Source: Escherichia coli
GTDB lineage: Bacteria; Pseudomonadota; Gammaproteobacteria; Enterobacterales; Enterobacteriaceae
Assembly (NCBI RefSeq): GCF_003018255.1
Contig: NZ_CP027440.1
DNA length: 64,000 nt
Direction: 5' to 3' (one strand)
The number at the start of each line of letters is the position of its first letter. Within the stretch, counting starts at the first letter, position 1. This document shows, piece after piece, positions 275-13,394 of the stretch. Below the pieces are notes generated by a model that was not told the DNA's origin, did no database searches, and saw nothing but the letters and a program-made list of their open reading frames with translations. The translations under genes were made by a program, and so were the position numbers.

Positions 275-2036
<1,762 letters not shown>

Positions 2037-2040
<4 letters not shown>

Positions 2041-3050
2041 ACGGTAAAAAACTTTATATCTCGGACGTCACGTTGCGTGACGGTATGCACGCCATTCGTC
2101 ATCAGTATTCATTGGAAAACGTTCGCCAGGTTGCCAAAGCACTGGACGATGCCCGCGTGGATTCGATTGAAGTGGCCCACGGCGACGGTTTGCAAGGTTC
2201 CAGCTTTAACTATGGTTTCGGCGCACATAGCGACCTTGAATGGATTGAAGCGGCGGCGGATGTGGTGAAGCACGCCAAAATCGCGACGTTGTTGCTGCCT
2301 GGAATCGGCACTATTCACGATCTGAAAAATGCCTGGCAGGCTGGCGCGCGGGTGGTTCGTGTGGCTACGCACTGTACCGAAGCTGATGTTTCCGCCCAGC
2401 ATATTCAGTATGCTCGCGAGCTCGGAATGGACACCGTTGGTTTTCTGATGATGAGCCATATGACCACGCCGGAGAATCTCGCAAAGCAGGCAAAGCTGAT
2501 GGAAGGCTACGGTGCGACCTGTATTTATGTGGTGGATTCTGGCGGTGCGATGAACATGAGCGATATCCGTGACCGTTTCCGCGCTCTGAAAGCAGTGCTG
2601 AAACCAGAAACGCAAACCGGCATACACGCTCACCATAACCTGAGTCTTGGCGTGGCGAACTCTATCGCGGCGGTGGAAGAGGGCTGCGACCGAATCGACG
2701 CCAGCCTCGCGGGAATGGGCGCGGGCGCAGGTAACGCGCCGCTGGAAGTTTTTATTGCCGCCGCGGATAAACTGGGTTGGCAGCATGGGACCGATCTCTA
2801 TGCGTTAATGGATGCCGCTGACGACCTGGTGCGTCCGTTGCAGGATCGACCGGTACGAGTCGATCGCGAAACGCTGGCGCTGGGATACGCTGGTGTTTAC
2901 TCGAGCTTCCTGCGTCACTGTGAAACGGCGGCGGCGCGTTATGGCTTAAGCGCGGTGGATATTCTCGTTGAGCTGGGCAAACGCCGGATGGTTGGCGGCC
3001 AGGAGGATATGATCGTCGACGTGGCGCTGGATCTGCGCAACAACAAATAA
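2037..3050 (+). CDS. mhpE: 4-hydroxy-2-oxovalerate aldolase
   Basis: 337 aa; recognised as MhpE; ATGA-coupled to mhpF. Confidence 0.95.
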
Positions 3051-3097
3051 TGATGACTGCCGAGAACGTGCATTTTGTATGCCCATCCCAGCACGAC

Positions 3098-3132
<35 letters not shown>

Positions 3133-3225
3133 ATTTCGCCCGTAGGCAGTCATTAAATGGTTCTGATTACGCGGCTGACAATGTATCAGCCGCGATTCAC
3201 CTGCACTCGCAACGAGGTTCATCTT

Positions 3226-4437
3226 ATGTCGACTCGTACCCCTTCATCATCTTCAACCCGCCTGATGCTGACCATCGGGCTTTGTTTTTTGGTCGCTCTG
3301 ATGGAAGGACTGGATCTTCAGGCGGCTGGCATTGCGGCGGGTGGCATCGCCCAGGCTTTCGCACTCGATAAAATGCAAATGGGCTGGATATTCAGCGCCG
3401 GAATACTCGGTTTGCTACCCGGCGCGTTGGTTGGCGGAATGCTGGCGGACCGTTATGGTCGCAAGCGCATTTTGATTGGCTCAGTTGCGCTGTTTGGTTT
3501 GTTCTCACTGGCAACGGCGATTGCCTGGGATTTCCCCTCACTGGTCTTTGCGCGGCTGATGACCGGTGTCGGGCTGGGGGCGGCGTTGCCGAATCTGATC
3601 GCCCTGACGTCTGAAGCCGCGGGTCCACGTTTTCGTGGGACGGCAGTGAGCCTGATGTATTGCGGTGTCCCCATTGGCGCGGCGCTGGCGGCGACACTGG
3701 GTTTCGCGGGGGCAAACTTAGCATGGCAAACGGTGTTTTGGGTAGGTGGTGTGGTGCCGTTGATTCTGGTGCCGCTATTAATGCGCTGGCTGCCGGAGTC
3801 GGCGGTGTTCGCTGGCGAAAAACAGGCTGCGCCACCACTGCGTGCGTTATTTGCGCCAGAAACGGCAACCGCGACGCTGCTGCTGTGGTTGTGTTATTTC
3901 TTCACTCTGCTGGTGGTCTACATGTTGATCAACTGGCTACCGCTGCTTTTGGTGGAGCAAGGATTCCAGCCATCGCAGGCGGCAGGGGTGATGTTTGCAC
4001 TGCAAATGGGGGCGGCAAGCGGGACGTTAATGTTGGGCGCATTGATGGATAAGCTGCGTCCAGTAACCATGTCGCTACTGATTTATAGCGGCATGTTAGC
4101 TTCGCTGCTGGCGCTGGGAACGGTGTCGTCATTTAACGGTATGTTGCTGGCGGGATTCGTCGCGGGGTTGTTTGCGACAGGTGGGCAAAGCGTTTTGTAT
4201 GCCCTGGCACCGTTGTTTTACAGTTCGCAGATCCGCGCAACAGGTGTGGGAACAGCCGTGGCGGTAGGGCGTCTGGGGGCTATGAGCGGTCCGTTACTGG
4301 CCGGGAAAATGCTGGCATTAGGCATTGGCACGGTTGGCGTAATGGCCGCTTCTGCGCCGGGTATTCTTGTTGCTGGCCTGGCAGTATTTATTTTGATGAG
4401 CCGGAGATCACGAATGCAGCCGTGCGCCGATGCCTGA
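3226..4437 (+). CDS. mhpT: 3-hydroxyphenylpropionate MFS transporter
   Basis: ATG 3226 preceded by gagg SD; 403 aa (track ORF from 3157 is an upstream extension); multiple hydrophobic TM segments; recognised as MhpT. Confidence 0.9.
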   Translation: MSTRTPSSSSTRLMLTIGLCFLVALMEGLDLQAAGIAAGGIAQAFALDKMQMGWIFSAGILGLLPGALVGGMLADRYGRKRILIGSVALFGLFSLATAIAWDFPSLVFARLMTGVGLGAALPNLIALTSEAAGPRFRGTAVSLMYCGVPIGAALAATLGFAGANLAWQTVFWVGGVVPLILVPLLMRWLPESAVFAGEKQAAPPLRALFAPETATATLLLWLCYFFTLLVVYMLINWLPLLLVEQGFQPSQAAGVMFALQMGAASGTLMLGALMDKLRPVTMSLLIYSGMLASLLALGTVSSFNGMLLAGFVAGLFATGGQSVLYALAPLFYSSQIRATGVGTAVAVGRLGAMSGPLLAGKMLALGIGTVGVMAASAPGILVAGLAVFILMSRRSRMQPCADA

Positions 4438-4538
4438 CGCGCCTTATTAAGCAGGGGCGAAAGGGACTTGCCCCCAATACACCTACGGCGTTTACAGGTA
4501 TACTCGCTAAAAATTATTCAGCGGGTTTGGAAACAAAG

Positions 4539-5078
4539 ATGGCAAAACTTACCTTACAAGAGCAGTTGCTCAAAGCAGGATTAGTCACCAGCAAAAAAGC
4601 GGCGAAGGTCGAGAGAACGGCGAAAAAATCGCGCGTTCAGGCGCGTGAAGCTCGGGCGGCGGTAGAAGAAAATAAAAAGGCACAGCTTGAGCGTGATAAA
4701 CAGCTTAGCGAACAGCAAAAACAAGCGGCGTTGGCGAAAGAATATAAAGCCCAGGTGAAGCAGCTCATTGAAATGAACCGAATCACCATTGCCAATGGCG
4801 ATATTGGTTTTAACTTCACTGACGGCAATCTGATTAAGAAGATTTTTGTCGATAAGCTCACACAGGCGCAGTTGATTAATGGTCGTCTGGCGATTGCCCG
4901 CTTGTTGGTCGATAACAATAGCGAAGGTGAATACGCCATTATTCCCGCCAGTGTTGCCGATAAAATTGCTCAGCGTGATGCCAGCAGTATTGTGTTGCAC
5001 AGCGCGCTCAGCGCCGAAGAGCAGGATGAAGACGATCCGTATGCCGACTTCAAAGTGCCTGATGATTTGATGTGGTAA
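4539..5078 (+). CDS. yaiL: DUF2058 family protein YaiL
   Basis: ATG 4539 (MAKLTLQEQ...), 179 aa, Lys/Glu-rich N-terminus; track ORF from 4422 overlaps the mhpT 3' end. Confidence 0.85.
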   Translation: MAKLTLQEQLLKAGLVTSKKAAKVERTAKKSRVQAREARAAVEENKKAQLERDKQLSEQQKQAALAKEYKAQVKQLIEMNRITIANGDIGFNFTDGNLIKKIFVDKLTQAQLINGRLAIARLLVDNNSEGEYAIIPASVADKIAQRDASSIVLHSALSAEEQDEDDPYADFKVPDDLMW

Positions 5079-5091
5079 ACATAGATAAGCC

Positions 5092-5300
<209 letters not shown>

Positions 5301-5304
5301 ATGC

Positions 5305-6138
5305 TCAACGCATATTCAGTTTATTGGCGTGGTACGCAATATGCTCGCCAATAAAACTGGAGACAAAATAATAGCTGTGATCATAACCCTCGTGATAACG
5401 GATTAACGTTTTGATATTCATCTCCTGGCAGATCTTTTCAAGATTTGGAGTCCGCAGCTGTTCTGCGTAAAAATCATCACTCAACCCCTGATCAACCATT
5501 ATTTCCGCAACGCGTTGACCTTGTGAAATAAGACTCACCGGATCGTAATCCAACCAGGCATCTTTATTTTCACCAAGATATGCGGTAAAGGCTTGCTGTC
5601 CCCACGGTACTTGCGATGGGGAGACAATGGGCGCAAACGCCGAGACGCTGACATATTCATCTGGGTTACGTAACGCCAGCACCAGCGCGCCCAGCCCGCC
5701 CATAGAATGACCTGAGATAGACTTTCTGGTCGTTGCCGGAAAATGTTGCATCACTAAATCCGGCAGCTCGTTGCGGATATAGTCATACATTTTGTAATGT
5801 TCATTCCACGGCGCTTGCGTTGCGTTCAGGTAAAACCCGGCACCTTGCCCGAGATCGTAACGGTCGGCATCTGCGACATGACTGCCTCGCGGACTGGTGT
5901 CTGGCGCAACAACAATAATGTTGTGCTCAGCCGCGTAACGCTGCATCCCCGATTTAGTAATGAAATTCTGCTCGTTGCAGGTCAGGCCTGAAAGCCAGTA
6001 CAACACCGGCAATTTTTCATTTGCGGCTTTTGGCGGGAGATAGACGCCGACATTCATTTCACATTTCAGTGATGGGGAATAATGCCGATACACATTTTGC
6101 CAGCCGCCAAAGCTGGCATGTTTTTCAATGAGTTCCAT
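5305..6138 (-). CDS. frmB: S-formylglutathione hydrolase
   Basis: 277 aa; GHSMGG serine-hydrolase motif; recognised as FrmB. Confidence 0.95.
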   Translation of the reverse strand: MELIEKHASFGGWQNVYRHYSPSLKCEMNVGVYLPPKAANEKLPVLYWLSGLTCNEQNFITKSGMQRYAAEHNIIVVAPDTSPRGSHVADADRYDLGQGAGFYLNATQAPWNEHYKMYDYIRNELPDLVMQHFPATTRKSISGHSMGGLGALVLALRNPDEYVSVSAFAPIVSPSQVPWGQQAFTAYLGENKDAWLDYDPVSLISQGQRVAEIMVDQGLSDDFYAEQLRTPNLEKICQEMNIKTLIRYHEGYDHSYYFVSSFIGEHIAYHANKLNMR

Positions 6139-6229: not shown

Positions 6230-7369
<1,140 letters not shown>

Positions 7370-7373
7370 TCAG

Positions 7374-7649
7374 CTATTTAAGATAGGCACGAACCAGTTC
7401 AATAGTGTCGTCAACGGATTGGCTGACTTCGCGGCTGTAGCAGTCATTTCGGTCAAACGTTTCCCGGATATGGCTTTCAAGCACTTCTGCCATCAGTCCG
7501 TTAGCCGCGCCCCGAACGGCAGCGATCTGTTGGAGTATGGCACGGCATTCGGCATCACCCTCCAGCGACCGTTCCAGAGCATCAATCTGCCCCCGAATAC
7601 GACGAACTCGAGTAAGGACCTTTTTCTTCTCTTCCGGAGTACTGGGCAT
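7374..7649 (-). CDS. frmR: formaldehyde-responsive repressor FrmR (CsoR/RcnR family)
   Basis: ATG at 7647-7649 ([10 protein letters not shown]...), 91 aa; track ORF extends 7 codons further upstream. Confidence 0.9.
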
Positions 7650-7672
7650 TTCGCACCTCATCATCTGCACGC

Positions 7673-7726
7673 AATATACTATAGGGGGGTATGTTATATG
7701 TCAATGCATACCCCCCTATAGTATAT
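7673..7726. promoter_or_regulatory. frmRAB promoter/operator inverted repeat
   Basis: Near-perfect palindrome tatactataggggggtat ... atacccccctatagtata directly upstream of frmR, with G/C tracts typical of CsoR/RcnR-family operators. Confidence 0.7.
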
Positions 7727-7833
7727 AACACTGGAGAATAAAATTTATCCGGTGAATGTAGTCGGATAACAAAAAGTAAAGAGGGGCCTAATCGACAGGG
7801 AAGGCCGCCCCGGATAGCGGGCGGCAGAAGGAA

Positions 7834-8607
7834 TCAGAATTTCCAGGTCAGATGGGCTGCAAGTTGCAGACCGTTATAATCATCGGTTGGGGTGTCGTAC
7901 CACACTTTACCTGCCGTCAGCCCGAGATTAAGTTGCTCAGTCAGCGGTTGAATACGTTGCAAACTGACGCTCTTCATGCTGCCGTAGCGTGTTTCTGGCG
8001 TCCAGTCATAGGTGTAAGCACCTGTTCCGCGGCTTAGCCATAGTTGCGTATAACCAGTGCCGCGCGGGTCATTCAGACGCACGGAAATCATATTGCTGTA
8101 ACTACCACCTGCATCGCTGGAGTCATAATGGGTATAGCGATAGCTGGTGATCACCGGGCCTGTATAGAGGGATACGCCGCCTTGCCAGGCATCGACTTCG
8201 ACATCATCGTAATATTTAGTGTAGCGATAACCGGTCGTGAAAAGCGTTTTTGGCAACAGGGCCAGGTTAATATCCTGACGAAAATCCTGGCGGGCAAAGA
8301 CCGGCGTATTATCCGCAAAGGCAATACCCGTTCGGGTTGTCAGCCAGTTATTCCATTTATACCAGACCGCACCCTGACCGCGAGTGGCATTGAAATGTTC
8401 AGTTTCATAATCACGACGCCCCTGGGAAAGATTAAAAAGCAGCGTTGCGTTTTCAACTTTCGCCACCAGTTCAGCATACGCTAAATTACGGTTGCCATGA
8501 TCGCCAGAATAATCGGTAAAATCGTAGCCCGCGGTAATGGAAGTTAACCCGGCATAAGCGGGCAATGTGCTAAATATTGCCGCCGCTAATAACGTCCGTT
8601 TTATCAT
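7834..8607 (-). CDS. yaiO: outer-membrane beta-barrel protein YaiO
   Basis: 257 aa; signal peptide MIKRTLLAAAIFSTLPAYA; alternating aromatic/hydrophilic strands; C-terminal ...HLTWKF. Confidence 0.85.
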   Translation of the reverse strand: MIKRTLLAAAIFSTLPAYAGLTSITAGYDFTDYSGDHGNRNLAYAELVAKVENATLLFNLSQGRRDYETEHFNATRGQGAVWYKWNNWLTTRTGIAFADNTPVFARQDFRQDINLALLPKTLFTTGYRYTKYYDDVEVDAWQGGVSLYTGPVITSYRYTHYDSSDAGGSYSNMISVRLNDPRGTGYTQLWLSRGTGAYTYDWTPETRYGSMKSVSLQRIQPLTEQLNLGLTAGKVWYDTPTDDYNGLQLAAHLTWKF

Positions 8608-8608
8608 T

Positions 8609-9319
8609 TTAATCTCCTGTACGGATAAGTTCTTGTCGGAGTGAATAAGTTCCGGTAGGTAAATTACGTTCTACAACCACGCGCGGGCCAAGTTGCGTGT
8701 TCGGGGAAATAATTCGCCCAGGCAAAATAATAACTTGTACGCCAAGGCGTGAACGCTGCCCGATATAACAACCTAATTTATCGCATCCGGTAGCGATAAT
8801 TCCCTCTGGAGTTCGAACAGACACGGGCTGTTCATCCAGACGATGATTACTGGTTCGTACTTGTGCGCCCAAATATGCCTGGTTTGCAACTACCGAGTCG
8901 GCAATAAAGCATTGCGGACCAATCGTTGCTTCCGCTTCAATAACCGCATTTTTAATTTCGGTGGCAAAACCAATTTTTACGCCATTGCTGATTATTGTGC
9001 CAGGACGAATAAACGCATAATTACCTATCAGGCAGTTTGCGCCAATCACTACCGGACCCTGAATAACGGCACCGTGGCAAATACGGGTATTCGCGCCGAT
9101 AACAACCTCACCGGCACTTTCATCAATAATCACCTGGTCTGCAATCTGAATATTTTTCTCTTTAACATTAAGCTTCAGATAGTTTTTCAGTTCCTGTGAC
9201 AGAAGGGTGGGAATAAGCGGTTGACGCTTCCACCAGTGCGGAATAGCGGGTGGGTTTGTCGCGCTGAGGTTCGCGTCCAGTAAAAAAGGCAATAAGTCCA
9301 TAAATAATCCAGATGGCAT
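8609..9319 (-). CDS. yaiX: hexapeptide-repeat (left-handed beta-helix) acyltransferase-like protein; start codon uncertain
   Basis: Uninterrupted 236-codon frame; repeated [LIV]-G-x-x-x-x-I hexapeptide units (VVIGANTRICHGAVIQGPVVIGANCLIGNYAFI...); upstream end overlaps the yaiP 3' end in another frame; candidate ATGs at 9319 and 9301 lack an obvious SD. Confidence 0.7.
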   Translation of the reverse strand: MPSGLFMDLLPFLLDANLSATNPPAIPHWWKRQPLIPTLLSQELKNYLKLNVKEKNIQIADQVIIDESAGEVVIGANTRICHGAVIQGPVVIGANCLIGNYAFIRPGTIISNGVKIGFATEIKNAVIEAEATIGPQCFIADSVVANQAYLGAQVRTSNHRLDEQPVSVRTPEGIIATGCDKLGCYIGQRSRLGVQVIILPGRIISPNTQLGPRVVVERNLPTGTYSLRQELIRTGD

Positions 9320-10364
9320 AAGCTAATAATACATACACAACGGAAAGCGGTGCTAAAGGCACCAACAACCAGCAACGATGAAACCAGGCGCTAAATGCAC
9401 CAATAACACAAACTACGCCGACCCAGATAAGCGGGAACATTGCCAACACCACACCATGTGGCCCGGTGGTGATGAATTCATTAAACCAGGTAGTGAGATA
9501 AATCCCAACGCCATAAAGCACAACCAACAGCATAGGAAATATACTGAAGATACCGAAGCGGCTAAATAAAAGTCTTTTATGCAGGCGCATACAGACCGCG
9601 TAGCCCACAATCCAACGCCGCCAGCGACGCCATTCCTCACGCGGGCTGTTGCATTCCTGTGGGTATACGATGCAGCGATTCGCCTGCCGAATACGATAGC
9701 CGTTTGCCACCAATGTCCAGGTGAGATCAAGGTCTTCGACTTTAGTACGATCAGAGAAACCGAACTTACGCAATACATCAGTACGGAACATCCCGCAGGC
9801 ACCGCTGATAATAAACGGTGCGCCGCCCAGGAGCTGCTGTAGCGTGCGCTTCATAACAATCATCGGCAACTTTACGGTCGCGCGGATGTGCGGTAACAGA
9901 CCCGCGCCTTTCAACGCAGTAGAGGGAATGCCGCCTACGGCATCAGCACCGCGCTCTATTTCTGCCAGCATATAGCCCATTCCGTCTTGATCGGGCGGAA
10001 CATAGGTGTCGGCATCATTTAAAAAAACCTGATCGCAGGTGGCGTAATTGAGGCCATTCATTAGCGCACCACCTTTACCGGTATTTTTTTGCGTGACGGC
10101 AATAAAGCGGTCGCCCCATTTGCGTTTGACTTCCGCCATGACCGCTTCGGTATTGTCCGTGGAGCCGTCGTTAACGCAAATTACCCGGCAGAAATAAGGG
10201 TTACGCAGCAGATTATCCAGTGACTGCGCCAGACACGGGCCTTCGTTATAAGCAGGTATAATGGCGTCAATACAGCCTTTCTTTTGGCTGGGCTTACGCC
10301 TTAACGTACTCAGAAACCATAGCAATATTGCTACGGCCATACATATAAAGATCCAGGTTTTCAT
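9168..10364 (-). CDS. yaiP: family-2 glycosyltransferase with N- and C-terminal membrane segments
   Basis: 398 aa; DxD-like NDAD motif, REEWRRWRRW resembling the QxxRW motif of processive GT2 synthases; hydrophobic C-terminal third. Confidence 0.85.
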   Translation of the reverse strand: MKTWIFICMAVAILLWFLSTLRRKPSQKKGCIDAIIPAYNEGPCLAQSLDNLLRNPYFCRVICVNDGSTDNTEAVMAEVKRKWGDRFIAVTQKNTGKGGALMNGLNYATCDQVFLNDADTYVPPDQDGMGYMLAEIERGADAVGGIPSTALKGAGLLPHIRATVKLPMIVMKRTLQQLLGGAPFIISGACGMFRTDVLRKFGFSDRTKVEDLDLTWTLVANGYRIRQANRCIVYPQECNSPREEWRRWRRWIVGYAVCMRLHKRLLFSRFGIFSIFPMLLVVLYGVGIYLTTWFNEFITTGPHGVVLAMFPLIWVGVVCVIGAFSAWFHRCWLLVPLAPLSVVYVLLAYAIWIIYGLIAFFTGREPQRDKPTRYSALVEASTAYSHPSVTGTEKLSEA

Positions 10365-10373
10365 GCAATTTGC

Positions 10374-11060
10374 TCAAAGAATCATTTTATGAATAACAAA
10401 ACCTTCACCCAGATCGCTATTGACCTGTTGCCCGCGAAATTGAGCAACTGCACGCAGACGCTCCGGGCGCATATAATCTCGCTGGCTCTGACTTTTATGT
10501 TTTTTTAACGCAGTCAGTTTAAGAGAAAAATATTCTTCTTTCACGGATTCAAAAACCTGAGGCATAAATGAAAGCCAGGTACTTGGTGTTTCATAGCCGA
10601 GAATTTGCGGAATAGCGCGACAGGCAACCATTGAGGCTTGATAGACTGCAAGATGATCCTGATGGCGGTCAGCATCATGCATGGTATATACACGTATAAT
10701 TTCAATATCAGAGGGAATTTGATTTTTTATGATATTTTCCAGGGCAGAAATCATATCATTGAGCTGTAAATGAGCGCGGGTGTCAGCAAAATTAAGATGA
10801 ATAGTTTGGTGGCACCCTAATATCTTTAGAGCGTTGCGTGATTCTTCGTGGCGATCGATTATTCCATCTACGCCAGAATTACCGGTAGTCATCACCACGG
10901 TAGCAATATAAATTCCTTTTTGCGCAAGGCGAGCTAGCGATGCGCCACAGCCTAATTCTATATCGTCAGGATGCGCGCCAATGGCAAGGATACCCTTTCT
11001 TTTATTTGCCGAAGAAAGGATCGCTGAATCTAAAACCTTATCCACTTTATGACACTCCAT
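10374..11060 (-). CDS. yaiS: PIG-L/LmbE-family deacetylase
   Basis: 228 aa; GAHPDDIELGCG zinc-deacetylase signature near N-terminus. Confidence 0.85.
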   Translation of the reverse strand: MECHKVDKVLDSAILSSANKRKGILAIGAHPDDIELGCGASLARLAQKGIYIATVVMTTGNSGVDGIIDRHEESRNALKILGCHQTIHLNFADTRAHLQLNDMISALENIIKNQIPSDIEIIRVYTMHDADRHQDHLAVYQASMVACRAIPQILGYETPSTWLSFMPQVFESVKEEYFSLKLTALKKHKSQSQRDYMRPERLRAVAQFRGQQVNSDLGEGFVIHKMIL

Positions 11061-11651
11061 TTTATTTATTATACTACAAGCACAACGACGCCCGCAGAGA
11101 CGTAACCTCTGACGCAGACAGATGCTAATTTTTAAGTGTTAAAAATAGCTGATAGCTGAAAAACAAGGGGCTGCCAGGTACGGGGATAAGACTGTATAAT
11201 CTTTATGTAGTTCATATGTTAAGTGTTTGTGTGTTTGGTTTGTATGGTTATTTTGTTTTATATATTGTATTTAAATGTGATTTAGTTTGTCAATTAATTG
11301 CATATTAAAAATATGTTCTATGCACAAATATGGGTTATATACATTATGTGAATGTATTATGTGGTTGATTGAGAATGATACAGTTATATATGCAATGTGA
11401 ATATAATGGTTTCATTATATGTATTGCTGTTAATAAAATAAAAGACATTATAATCTGCTTGTTTATGCATTAATAAAATGAAGTGCAGTAACTTACTGAA
11501 TTGTCAGAGTGGGTGTAATTGCATATTTAATCTTTCCTTTGCCACTTTTTCGCTAAGAATAAAATCATCTGTGCGATAACAACTAATTCTTTTAATGAAT
11601 GTTTTTATTCCTGAATACTGCTCCCATAACAAGACAGGGGAGCAGACAATC

Positions 11652-12614
11652 ATGGCAATTTCATCGCGTAACACACTTCTTGCCGCACTGGCATTCATCG
11701 CTTTTCAGGCACAGGCGGTGAACGTCACTGTGGCGTATCAAACTTCAGCCGAACCGGCGAAAGTGGCTCAGGCCGACAACACCTTTGCTAAAGAGAGCGG
11801 GGCGAGCGTTGACTGGCGTAAGTTTGACAGCGGAGCCAGCATCGTGCGGGCGCTGGCTTCTGGCGACGTGCAAATCGGTAACCTCGGTTCCAGCCCATTA
11901 GCGGTGGCAGCCAGCCAACAGGTGCCGATTGAAGTCTTCTTACTGGCGTCAAAACTGGGTAACTCCGAAGCGCTGGTGGTGAAGAAAACTATCAGCAAAC
12001 CGGAAGATCTGATTGGCAAGCGCATCGCCGTACCGTTTATCTCCACCACCCACTACAGCCTGCTGGCGGCGCTGAAACACTGGGGTATTAAACCTGGGCA
12101 AGTGGAGATTGTGAACCTGCAGCCGCCCGCAATTATCGCCGCCTGGCAGCGGGGAGATATTGATGGTGCTTATGTCTGGGCACCGGCGGTTAACGCGCTG
12201 GAAAAAGACGGCAAGGTGCTGACCGATTCTGAACAGGTCGGGCAGTGGGGCGCGCCGACGCTGGACGTCTGGGTCGTGCGGAAAGATTTTGCCGAGAAAC
12301 ATCCTGAGGTCGTGAAAGCGTTCGCTAAAAGCGCCATCGATGCTCAGCAACCGTACATTGCTAACCCAGACGCGTGGCTGAAACAGCCGGAAAACATCAG
12401 CAAACTGGCGCGGTTAAGCGGCGTGCCTGAAGGTGACGTTCCGGGGCTGGTGAAGGGGAATACCTATCTGACGCCGCAGCAGCAAACGGCAGAACTGACC
12501 GGACCGGTGAACAAAGCGATCATCGACACCGCGCAGTTTTTGAAAGAGCAGGGCAAAGTCCCCGCCGTGGCGAATGATTACAGCCAGTACGTTACCTCGC
12601 GCTTCGTGCAATAA
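11652..12614 (+). CDS. tauA: taurine ABC transporter periplasmic binding protein
   Basis: ATG 11652 (MAISSRNTLLAALAFIAFQAQA signal peptide), 320 aa; track ORF from 11595 is an upstream extension. Confidence 0.93.
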   Translation: MAISSRNTLLAALAFIAFQAQAVNVTVAYQTSAEPAKVAQADNTFAKESGASVDWRKFDSGASIVRALASGDVQIGNLGSSPLAVAASQQVPIEVFLLASKLGNSEALVVKKTISKPEDLIGKRIAVPFISTTHYSLLAALKHWGIKPGQVEIVNLQPPAIIAAWQRGDIDGAYVWAPAVNALEKDGKVLTDSEQVGQWGAPTLDVWVVRKDFAEKHPEVVKAFAKSAIDAQQPYIANPDAWLKQPENISKLARLSGVPEGDVPGLVKGNTYLTPQQQTAELTGPVNKAIIDTAQFLKEQGKVPAVANDYSQYVTSRFVQ

Positions 12615-12626
12615 AAGGAGGCGCAG

Positions 12627-13394
12627 ATGCTGCAAATTTCTCATCTTTACGCCGATTATGGCGGCAAACCGGCACTGGAAGATATCAACCTGACGCTGGA
12701 AAGCGGCGAGCTTCTGGTAGTTCTGGGGCCGTCTGGCTGCGGCAAAACCACCTTGCTGAATCTGATTGCCGGTTTTGTGCCTTATCAGCATGGCAGCATT
12801 CAACTGGCGGGTAAGTGCATTGAGGGACCGGGAGCAGAGCGGGGCGTGGTTTTTCAGAATGAAGGGCTGTTGCCGTGGCGTAATGTGGTAGACAACGTGG
12901 CGTTCGGCCTGCAACTGGCAGGTGTAGAGAAAATGCAGCGACTGGAAATCGCACACCAGATGGTGAAAAAAGTGGGGCTGGAAGGCGCAGAAAAACGCTA
13001 CATCTGGCAGCTTTCCGGTGGTCAACGTCAGCGGGTGGGGATTGCCCGCGCGTTGGCGGCAAATCCCCAGCTGTTATTACTCGACGAACCGTTTGGTGCG
13101 CTGGACGCCTTCACCCGCGACCAGATGCAAACCCTGCTGCTGAAACTCTGGCAGGAGACGGGAAAGCAGGTGCTGTTGATTACCCACGATATAGAAGAAG
13201 CGGTGTTTATGGCGACTGAACTGGTTCTGCTTTCACCCGGCCCAGGCCGTGTGCTGGAGCGGCTGCCGCTCAACTTTGCTCGCCGCTTTGTTGCGGGAGA
13301 GTCGAGCCGCAGCATCAAGTCCGATCCACAATTCATCGCCATGCGCGAATATGTTTTAAGCCGCGTATTTGAGCAACGGGAGGCGTTCTCATGA
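12627..13394 (+). CDS. tauB: taurine ABC transporter ATP-binding protein
   Basis: 255 aa; Walker [13 protein letters not shown] signature LSGGQRQR, Walker B LLLLDEP. Confidence 0.95.

Follow-up and report, generated by a model that had tools for sequence, protein, structure and literature searches.

Which product is made by the four genes yaiO, yaiX, yaiP and yaiS, which in Escherichia coli lie in the order frmRAB - yaiO-yaiX-yaiP-yaiS - tauABCD? We followed this question for the copy at positions 7834-11060 of a 64,000-nt stretch of the E. coli contig NZ_CP027440.1 (assembly GCF_003018255.1), which is called the window in the following. Literature searches yielded no paper in which a product is identified or the four genes are described as one system; matches for "yaiP" and "yaiO" in the Methylobacterium literature were discarded, as they are strain names and not genes. 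A preliminary description of the window, made from the letters and translations alone, had noted four co-directional minus-strand genes with short or negative spacers and had compared them with a cryptic exopolysaccharide system. The coordinates agree with this arrangement. All four open reading frames (ORFs) are co-directional on the minus strand and intact, the yaiS stop codon is followed after 9 nt by the yaiP start, yaiP and yaiX overlap, and yaiO begins 1 nt after the yaiX stop; the four ORFs are translationally coupled. The quoted motifs can likewise be read in the translations, namely NDAD (D117/D119) and REEWRRWRRW in YaiP, AHPDD in YaiS, and the signal peptide ...LPAYA/G as well as the C-terminal TWKF in YaiO, and profile and structure searches returned the four expected families, glycosyltransferase family 2 (GT2), PIG-L, left-handed beta-helix (LbH) and outer-membrane barrel. 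As shown below, yaiS-yaiP-yaiX-yaiO is one conserved and horizontally mobile unit. What it makes we can answer only tentatively: with somewhat less than an even chance, the operon would be self-contained, build a glycan derived from N-acetylglucosamine (GlcNAc) and carry it across both membranes.

That the four genes belong together can be seen from their distribution. When the cassette with its flanking sequence was used as query against 5426 complete E. coli genomes, at least 80% of it was present in 4801 (about 88%), and about 11% lacked most of it. Non-K-12 E. coli genomes were sampled from all parts of the BLAST ranking, and the four ORFs are intact in 11/11 of them. The preliminary description was thus right that yaiX, split by IS2 in K-12, is a single frame in the window, but this is no peculiarity of the window, as an intact cassette is the norm in E. 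coli. Outside this species, YaiP orthologues 60-69% identical to the window protein are found in Pseudoxanthomonas, Lysobacter, Stenotrophomonas, Acinetobacter and a Pseudomonas. We examined ortholog-bearing loci of Citrobacter, S. maltophilia, Pseudoxanthomonas, two metagenome bins, two Acinetobacter and two further loci, and the order PIG-L - GT2 - LbH - YaiO with tight spacing is kept at every one of them, which bears out the co-occurrence that the preliminary description had put forward as a check, in the same order and across distant Gammaproteobacteria; one further ortholog locus (L082) is cut within yaiX. The flanking genes at these loci are unrelated from genome to genome, and there is no fifth conserved gene among them, PgaD-like proteins, flippases, ABC exporters, polymerases, tetratricopeptide repeat (TPR) scaffolds and cyclic di-GMP proteins all being absent. 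Each of the four genes is under purifying selection, the ratio of nonsynonymous to synonymous substitution rates (dN/dS) being 0.04-0.16 within E. coli as well as against Citrobacter. In a profile scan with the YaiP alignment, the matches listed include at least four true orthologous loci, the others being unrelated GT2 proteins of 25-40% identity that served as alignment outgroups only. A locus of Mumia quercus was not counted as a cassette, its GT2 and PIG-L genes lying on opposite strands and ~3 kb apart (8001-8741; 12059-12649). The GT2 protein of this actinobacterium is PgaC-like, 31% identical to YaiP and has a true QRVRW motif, and the nearby PIG-L protein is 41% identical to YaiS.

The cassette is also mobile within E. 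coli. In strains of sequence type 131 (ST131) and related strains it is found at a second chromosomal site, adjoining an IS66 remnant, a PfkB kinase gene and ibrAB, and in E. coli WGS1363 and the ST131 strain 5392 the site between frmR and tauA is free of it. In the island copies of these two strains, identity to the window proteins is 94-97% for YaiP, YaiX and YaiO and only 63% for YaiS, so that the 5' end is mosaic. A complete cassette of about 90% identity is carried by the conjugative IncF plasmid NZ_AP024124.1 (127 kb) of a bovine E. coli, about 4 kb from the toxin gene cnf2. Matches were found in 56 plasmid records, of which 41 have at least 80% of the cassette and 38 are typed as conjugative; the top five "plasmid" matches, 1.2-4.9 Mb in size, look like mislabelled chromosomal records.

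The core of the cassette is YaiP (9168-10364, minus strand, 398 aa), a predicted inner-membrane GT2 glycosyltransferase of synthase-like type with matches to PF00535, PF13641 and PF13632. The best curated family is PgaC_IcaA (TIGR03937; 100.2 bits, E 1.2e-28), which is matched over residues 23-286 only and below its cut-off of 422.3; the next-best curated family reaches 42 bits, and NodC (TIGR04242) 29.2 bits against a cut-off of 550. In an alignment of YaiP orthologues with distant PgaC-like enzymes, D117, D119, E210, D211, R250 and W251 are invariant. Moreover, a conserved loop after the last transmembrane (TM) helix, G363...R368-D-K-P-T-R373-Y, shares its column with the W-x-T-R motif of the PgaC-like enzymes. 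The AlphaFold model (predicted local distance difference test, pLDDT, 83.6; predicted template modelling score, pTM, 0.80) has a single TM helix at the N-terminus, then a GT-A domain and an interface helix with RWRRW, and at the C-terminus three TM helices followed by a disordered tail. Its best structural matches are class I hyaluronan synthases (HAS; Foldseek TMq 0.60-0.68) and BcsA, aligned over ~340 residues with the interface and TM helices included, whereas ArnC, GtrB and DPMS superpose over the GT-A domain only. YaiP therefore has the DxD, ED and (Q/R)xxRW motifs and the membrane-inclusive fold of the membrane-integrated processive GT2 superfamily (HAS/CesA/CHS/PgaC/NodC type), and it has neither the two C-terminal TM helices with juxtamembrane helices nor the equivalog-level match of ArnC/GtrB/DPMS. 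Family and predicted fold support a grouping of YaiP with the membrane-integrated processive-type GT2 synthases, as the preliminary description had supposed; processive elongation coupled to translocation through a channel would be a prediction from this grouping. As a separate observation, a promoter of an antisense RNA inside yaiP served as a negative-control reporter in a study on RyhB (PMC4666370), and such a promoter is consistent with spurious transcription in a region of H-NS type.

YaiS belongs to the carbohydrate de-N-acetylases, judged by its sequence, which is again the placement given in the preliminary description. It matches PF02585 (PIG-L) at 3.2e-24 and carries the metal-binding and catalytic motifs of this family, AHPDD and HQDH, in agreement with the (A/P)HPDD and HxxH of PIG-L/LmbE proteins; we take this family to be CE14 of the CAZy classification. 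The best NCBIfam match is BshB1 (4.7e-22, under the cut-off), and YaiS reaches no equivalog cut-off among BshB1, BshB2, MshB and Mca. Among solved proteins the best sequence match, aligned over the full length, is an archaeal diacetylchitobiose deacetylase (3e-12), an enzyme that removes the acetyl group from the non-reducing GlcNAc of chitobiose. The longest ORF of the gene is 10374-11060 on the minus strand (228 aa, to ATG 11060). However, codon 5 of this frame is a stop in most E. coli, and GGAG precedes GTG 11045; for these reasons the real start is most likely GTG 11045, which gives a protein of 223 aa (10374-11045). In the allele of the window and its closest relatives, H1 and H2, the upstream frame (11046-11060) is open to the ATG (MECHK...). 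The gene stands out within the operon by its unusual divergence between E. coli alleles and its composition: its GC content is 43% (34% at third codon positions) versus 46-50% in the other three genes, and synonymous divergence (dS) between E. coli alleles is 0.35 versus 0.05-0.10, which is three to seven times higher. The NCBI annotation pipeline (PGAP) calls yaiS an "incomplete" pseudogene in most sampled genomes, despite the open 223-codon frame. Since the frame is open and conserved, this label is probably an artefact that the annotation has taken over from K-12. A 39-codon ykiC-like ORF (10389-10508, plus strand), annotated in RefSeq, lies antisense to the 3' end of yaiS.

In K-12 the operon carries two lesions, since besides the IS2 in yaiX there is an amber codon in yaiS. 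The amber TAG replaces the CAG that is found at 10485-10487 of the window (codon 186 counted from GTG 11045), and YaiS thereby loses its last 38 residues, which are conserved. CAG is present in the window and in 11/11 sampled non-K-12 E. coli, and the amber codon was seen in K-12 only. The last 38 residues are kept in the 63%-identical YaiS allele and align with the end of solved PIG-L enzymes. That the product of the operon has escaped assignment is largely because the reference strain is broken twice. The preliminary description had held that neither product nor phenotype is assigned to the cluster; this stands for the product, but phenotypes have been reported. According to the entry in the EcoGene 3.0 paper, repair of yaiX in K-12 leads to vegetative clumping for which yaiP is needed (PMC3531124). 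Furthermore, a paper of 2026, which leaves operon and substrate unaddressed, describes higher drug tolerance and higher virulence in silkworms upon overexpression of a 71-aa YaiX fragment, with a weaker effect of the 236-aa form (PMC13058169). Upstream of the operon lies the AT-rich region between yaiS and tauA (11061-11594, ~530 bp, about 30% GC), which is likely the silenced promoter region. The best sigma-70-like site is found here on the minus strand at 11293-11264 (TTGACA-18-TACAAT, 11/12 matches), and for K-12 the same interval is included, in Table 1 of PMC3661553, among the H-NS-bound "promoter islands" associated with genes gained by horizontal transfer. The H-NS-bound, AT-rich region therefore supports the label "cryptic" given in the preliminary description, and the operon is probably silent in laboratory E. 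coli.

YaiX (8609-9319, minus strand, 236 aa) has the LbH fold, with Hexapep/LbH matches in Pfam and a match to the C-terminal domain TIGR03992 at 1.6e-37. Its best match among solved structures is the LbH domain of Sulfolobus ST0452 (8e-23), an amino-sugar-1-phosphate N-acetyltransferase, and YaiX is most similar to the glucosamine-1-phosphate acetyltransferase domain of archaeal GlmU-type enzymes. In the ortholog alignment W29W30, GPQ134-136, VRTSNHRLD154-162 and LPGR are invariant. Of these, W29-W30 are encoded within the overlap with yaiP, upstream of the CTG starts used by PGAP/RefSeq, and the Acinetobacter gene begins with M-W-W. Therefore, the start of the E. coli gene, read from its sequence, must be ATG 9319 or ATG 9301. 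No Shine-Dalgarno sequence is evident for yaiX. The resulting overlap with yaiP is 134-152 nt (9168-9319 in the window) versus 14 nt in Acinetobacter, and the tail of E. coli YaiP has ~24 extra residues, which are disordered.

YaiO (7834-8607, minus strand, 257 aa) is assigned with a wide margin to its own family (TIGR04390, 184.3 bits versus a cut-off of 32; PF19413, 4.7e-26). It has a signal peptide predicted to be cleaved after AYA19 and a terminal Phe, and is confidently modelled as an open-looking 14-strand outer-membrane barrel, with neither a FadL-type hatch domain nor a TPR domain in the model. The closest fold is that of CymA, an oligosaccharide channel. From strand alternation, the lumen lining would be rich in Tyr, Thr and Gly with 7 acidic and 12 basic residues, the phases of several strands being ambiguous. 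An exhaustive profile search of 1.84 billion proteins showed that this is a small family of 175 representatives, and word-based searches gave homologues of no more than ~33% identity. Some members are longer, with an N-terminal extension and a C-terminal barrel and in one case a weak SPOR match. On two unrelated metagenome contigs such long genes (1587-3221; 4176-5351) directly follow genes for UDP-GlcNAc 2-epimerases (PF02350), which we count as support for an amino-sugar glycan.

From these parts the following pathway can be proposed. YaiP, as a minimal GT2 of HAS/PgaC/BcsA type, would use a UDP-activated N-acetylhexosamine (UDP-HexNAc) as donor on the cytoplasmic side. Judged by family, fold and motifs, it would most likely polymerise the sugar while threading the chain through the inner membrane. 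GlcNAc would be the sugar installed because UDP-GlcNAc is available, and the acetyl group would then be removed and the amine left free or acylated again. Since no signal peptide was found in the translation of YaiS or in that of YaiX, both would act in the cytoplasm before export, on a precursor, a primer or a cytoplasm-exposed sugar, and not on an already extruded polymer. This step is suggested by family logic, as the pairing of a de-N-acetylase with an acyltransferase is known from LpxC/LpxD, MshB/MshD, NodB/NodA and the tailoring of teicoplanin by its deacetylase and acyltransferase. YaiO would supply a 14-strand passage through the outer membrane, for which its fold and its constant linkage speak, and the product would make cells adhere, which is in line with the clumping listed in EcoGene for K-12 with repaired yaiX, the sole recorded experiment at the level of the operon. 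The operon would be held behind its AT-rich, H-NS-bound region and in K-12 be further disabled by IS2 and the yaiS amber codon. Donor sugar, chain length, order of tailoring and the role of YaiO are thus what we infer; what the data themselves show is the integrity of the genes, their families, folds and motifs, the conserved linkage, the mobility and the purifying selection. A narrower version can be formulated, which is possible but on the whole doubtful: a so far unrecognised class of minimal, mobile, envelope-spanning glycan pathway with a four-TM synthase-type GT2, a TPR-less 14-strand porin and cytoplasmic PIG-L/LbH N-editing, which would put a polymer or oligomer of glucosamine, either N-deacetylated or with another N-acyl group, on the surface of most E. 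coli and which, normally silenced by H-NS, would have been invisible in K-12 due to the two independent lesions.

Several observations weigh against an exported polymer, and some of them would fit other products. No product has been observed. In the PgaC-like alignment the Q of QxxRW is replaced by an invariant Arg, R247, so that of the QxxRW-like motif named in the preliminary description the RW (R250-W251) holds and the Q does not; the RxxRW variant also occurs in non-polymerising GT21 lipid glucosyltransferases, therefore the motif is no proof of processivity, and Pfam GT21 itself matches YaiP weakly (2.2e-7). YaiP has only four TM helices, and PcManGT, which uses lipid-linked acceptors, was matched almost as well as BcsA; since it shares the fold, the fold alone is no proof of polymer translocation. 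Moreover, the substrates of the characterised PIG-L enzymes are, to our knowledge, disaccharides or GlcNAc conjugates that are small or lipid-linked, and not polymers. Together with the lack of a flippase or exporter at the examined loci, all this could be explained if YaiP added one or a few GlcNAc residues to a membrane lipid (diacylglycerol, phospholipid or polyprenyl phosphate), YaiS deacetylated the sugar at the cytoplasmic face, YaiX N-acylated the free amine and YaiO aided the transfer of this amphiphile to the surface, by analogy with the logic of PIG-A/PIG-L, HpnI/HpnK, ArnC/ArnD or LgmA/LgmC. We consider such a glycolipid unlikely, because PgaC is the best curated family and HAS and BcsA give the best folds with the membrane part aligned, in contrast to the GT-A-only superposition of ArnC, GtrB and DPMS, because YaiO is free of a FadL-type hatch, and because the linked GT-C transferase or flippase that Arn- or Lgm-type pathways need is missing.

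The tailoring and export proteins raise similar questions. The catalytic His of GlmU and ST0452 (H363/H308) is not kept in YaiX, which has P135 of the invariant GPQ at this position, and the invariant N158-H159-R160 sits one coil beyond P135. Therefore, acyltransferase activity is not certain, and YaiX may, from its sequence, be called a putative N-acyltransferase of uncertain catalysis. YaiO, which is without a TPR scaffold, is closer to general 14-strand channels than to the polysaccharide porins described so far. The likeness of its fold to CymA would suit a short GlcNAc oligomer made by YaiP, deacetylated at the terminal residue by YaiS, acylated again by YaiX and released via YaiO, similar to a Nod factor; the 1+3 TM layout and size of YaiP resemble NodC, both tailoring enzymes would be cytoplasmic, and the best solved relative of YaiS acts on just such a terminal GlcNAc. 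Yet YaiP stays at 29 bits in the NodC model with its cut-off of 550, no protein of the cassette is homologous to NodA or NodB, an inner-membrane exporter such as NodIJ is not linked to it, and the clumping, as far as the EcoGene entry describes it, is more typical of a polymer, so that we rate this oligomer as quite improbable, although it and the glycolipid are the rival readings to be taken seriously. For the clumping itself the sole source is a meeting abstract, to which the database paper refers (PMC3531124), and as the phenotype arose in K-12 with truncated YaiS, this protein may be dispensable for it. Could the cassette then be a decaying or functionless relic in E. coli, with silent genes and overexpression phenotypes that are artefacts? 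The H-NS-bound, AT-rich upstream region, the two lesions tolerated by K-12, the about 11% of complete genomes without most of the cassette, the frequent pseudogene calls for yaiS by PGAP and the phenotypes obtained with a mere 71-aa YaiX fragment would agree with this. But the four ORFs are intact in 11/11 sampled non-K-12 genomes with dN/dS of 0.04-0.16, YaiP is 60-69% identical as far away as Stenotrophomonas, Pseudoxanthomonas and Acinetobacter, the cassette is kept on plasmids and islands, and the pseudogene label conflicts with the open 223-codon frame of yaiS. Due to these data on selection and linkage a relic is very unlikely.

Regarding the borders of the operon, a GC-rich hairpin (7804-7825, minus strand; stem GCCGCCC...GGGCGGC) lies 9 nt past the yaiO stop codon and is a possible operon end, although it has no U-run; strand folding gave a z-score of -2.25 for the whole region, and a terminator scan called none after yaiO. 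A search of 7300-11700 against Rfam found no RNA family. As none of the four proteins was matched by PADLOC, a role in anti-phage defence was dropped.

If the product is indeed an adhesive amino-sugar glycan, E. coli would have one more constituent of its matrix or surface in addition to cellulose, poly-N-acetylglucosamine (PNAG), colanic acid and curli, with the genes present in about 88% of the complete genomes as well as on conjugative plasmids, one of them with cnf2, and on an island in ST131 and related strains. The glycan would then be relevant for aggregation, biofilm formation and recognition by phages and the immune system. The cassette would also provide a very small, portable model for the transport of a glycan through two membranes by a synthase-type GT2 protein and a simple barrel, and for N-acyl editing in the cytoplasm.

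How does the cassette relate to known systems? The preliminary description had seen in it the parts list of Pga-, Ica- or cellulose-type secretion, which is appropriate as a functional analogy but not as homology, as PgaD, BcsB, PilZ and TPR parts are all absent. With the Pga/Ica systems for PNAG it shares a membrane GT2 synthase core with PgaC_IcaA as the best curated family, a de-N-acetylation step, a dedicated outer-membrane barrel, the compact operon and, going by the EcoGene entry, a phenotype of aggregation type. However, YaiP reaches 100 bits versus the 422-bit equivalog cut-off of PgaC/IcaA, and PgaD/IcaD is absent beside the cassette, in the window as well as at the ortholog loci in other genera. 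YaiS is a predicted cytoplasmic PIG-L protein (CE14), whereas PgaB and IcaB are periplasmic or extracellular CE4 enzymes, and YaiO has 14 strands without TPR versus 16 strands plus TPR in PgaA; furthermore, the cassette adds the LbH protein YaiX, and no link to cyclic di-GMP is evident. Thus none of the four Pga/Ica features that were tested, a synthase above the cut-off, PgaD, an exported CE4 deacetylase and a TPR porin, is found here. PgaB/IcaB, like enzymes of WssFGHI or AlgIJFX type, modify the already extruded polymer. HAS and BcsA share with YaiP the DxD, ED and (Q/R)xxRW motifs, the conserved loop after the TM helices and the fold over ~340 residues, but YaiP differs in its four TM helices, its length of 398 aa and the Arg in place of the Q of QxxRW; of the Bcs system the cassette has no PilZ domain, no BcsB and no BcsC-type TPR porin.

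The NodC-NodB-NodA pathway is similar in its logic, a GT2 HexNAc synthase combined with a cytoplasmic de-N-acetylase and an N-acyltransferase. NodC has a 1+3 TM topology, and YaiP, as modelled, is of similar size and layout. The tailoring proteins are not homologous, YaiS being PIG-L and NodB CE4, YaiX being LbH and different from NodA, and the cassette has an outer-membrane barrel instead of NodIJ, so that neither a NodC equivalog (29 versus 550 bits) nor NodB or NodA is present. In ArnC/ArnD, LgmA/LgmC of Bordetella, FlmF2/NaxD of Francisella, HpnI/HpnK of hopanoid synthesis and PIG-A/PIG-L of the GPI pathway, an N-acyl amino sugar is likewise transferred to a membrane acceptor by a glycosyltransferase and then deacylated at the cytoplasmic face, and YaiS is a member of the PIG-L family, after which one of these steps is named; in contrast to these lipid-linked pathways, the fold and motifs of YaiP are of synthase and not of ArnC/GtrB type, and the cassette has an outer-membrane barrel and an LbH protein but no linked GT-C transferase or flippase. 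PcManGT (PDB 6yv7), an archaeal mannosyltransferase of N-glycan biosynthesis described as a "minimal cellulose-synthase-like" GT2, comes without such operon partners. By sequence and by analogy, the yaiS-yaiP-yaiX-yaiO cassette is therefore best regarded as a distinct compact variant, which has the outline of a synthase-dependent secretion system but a different and smaller set of parts.

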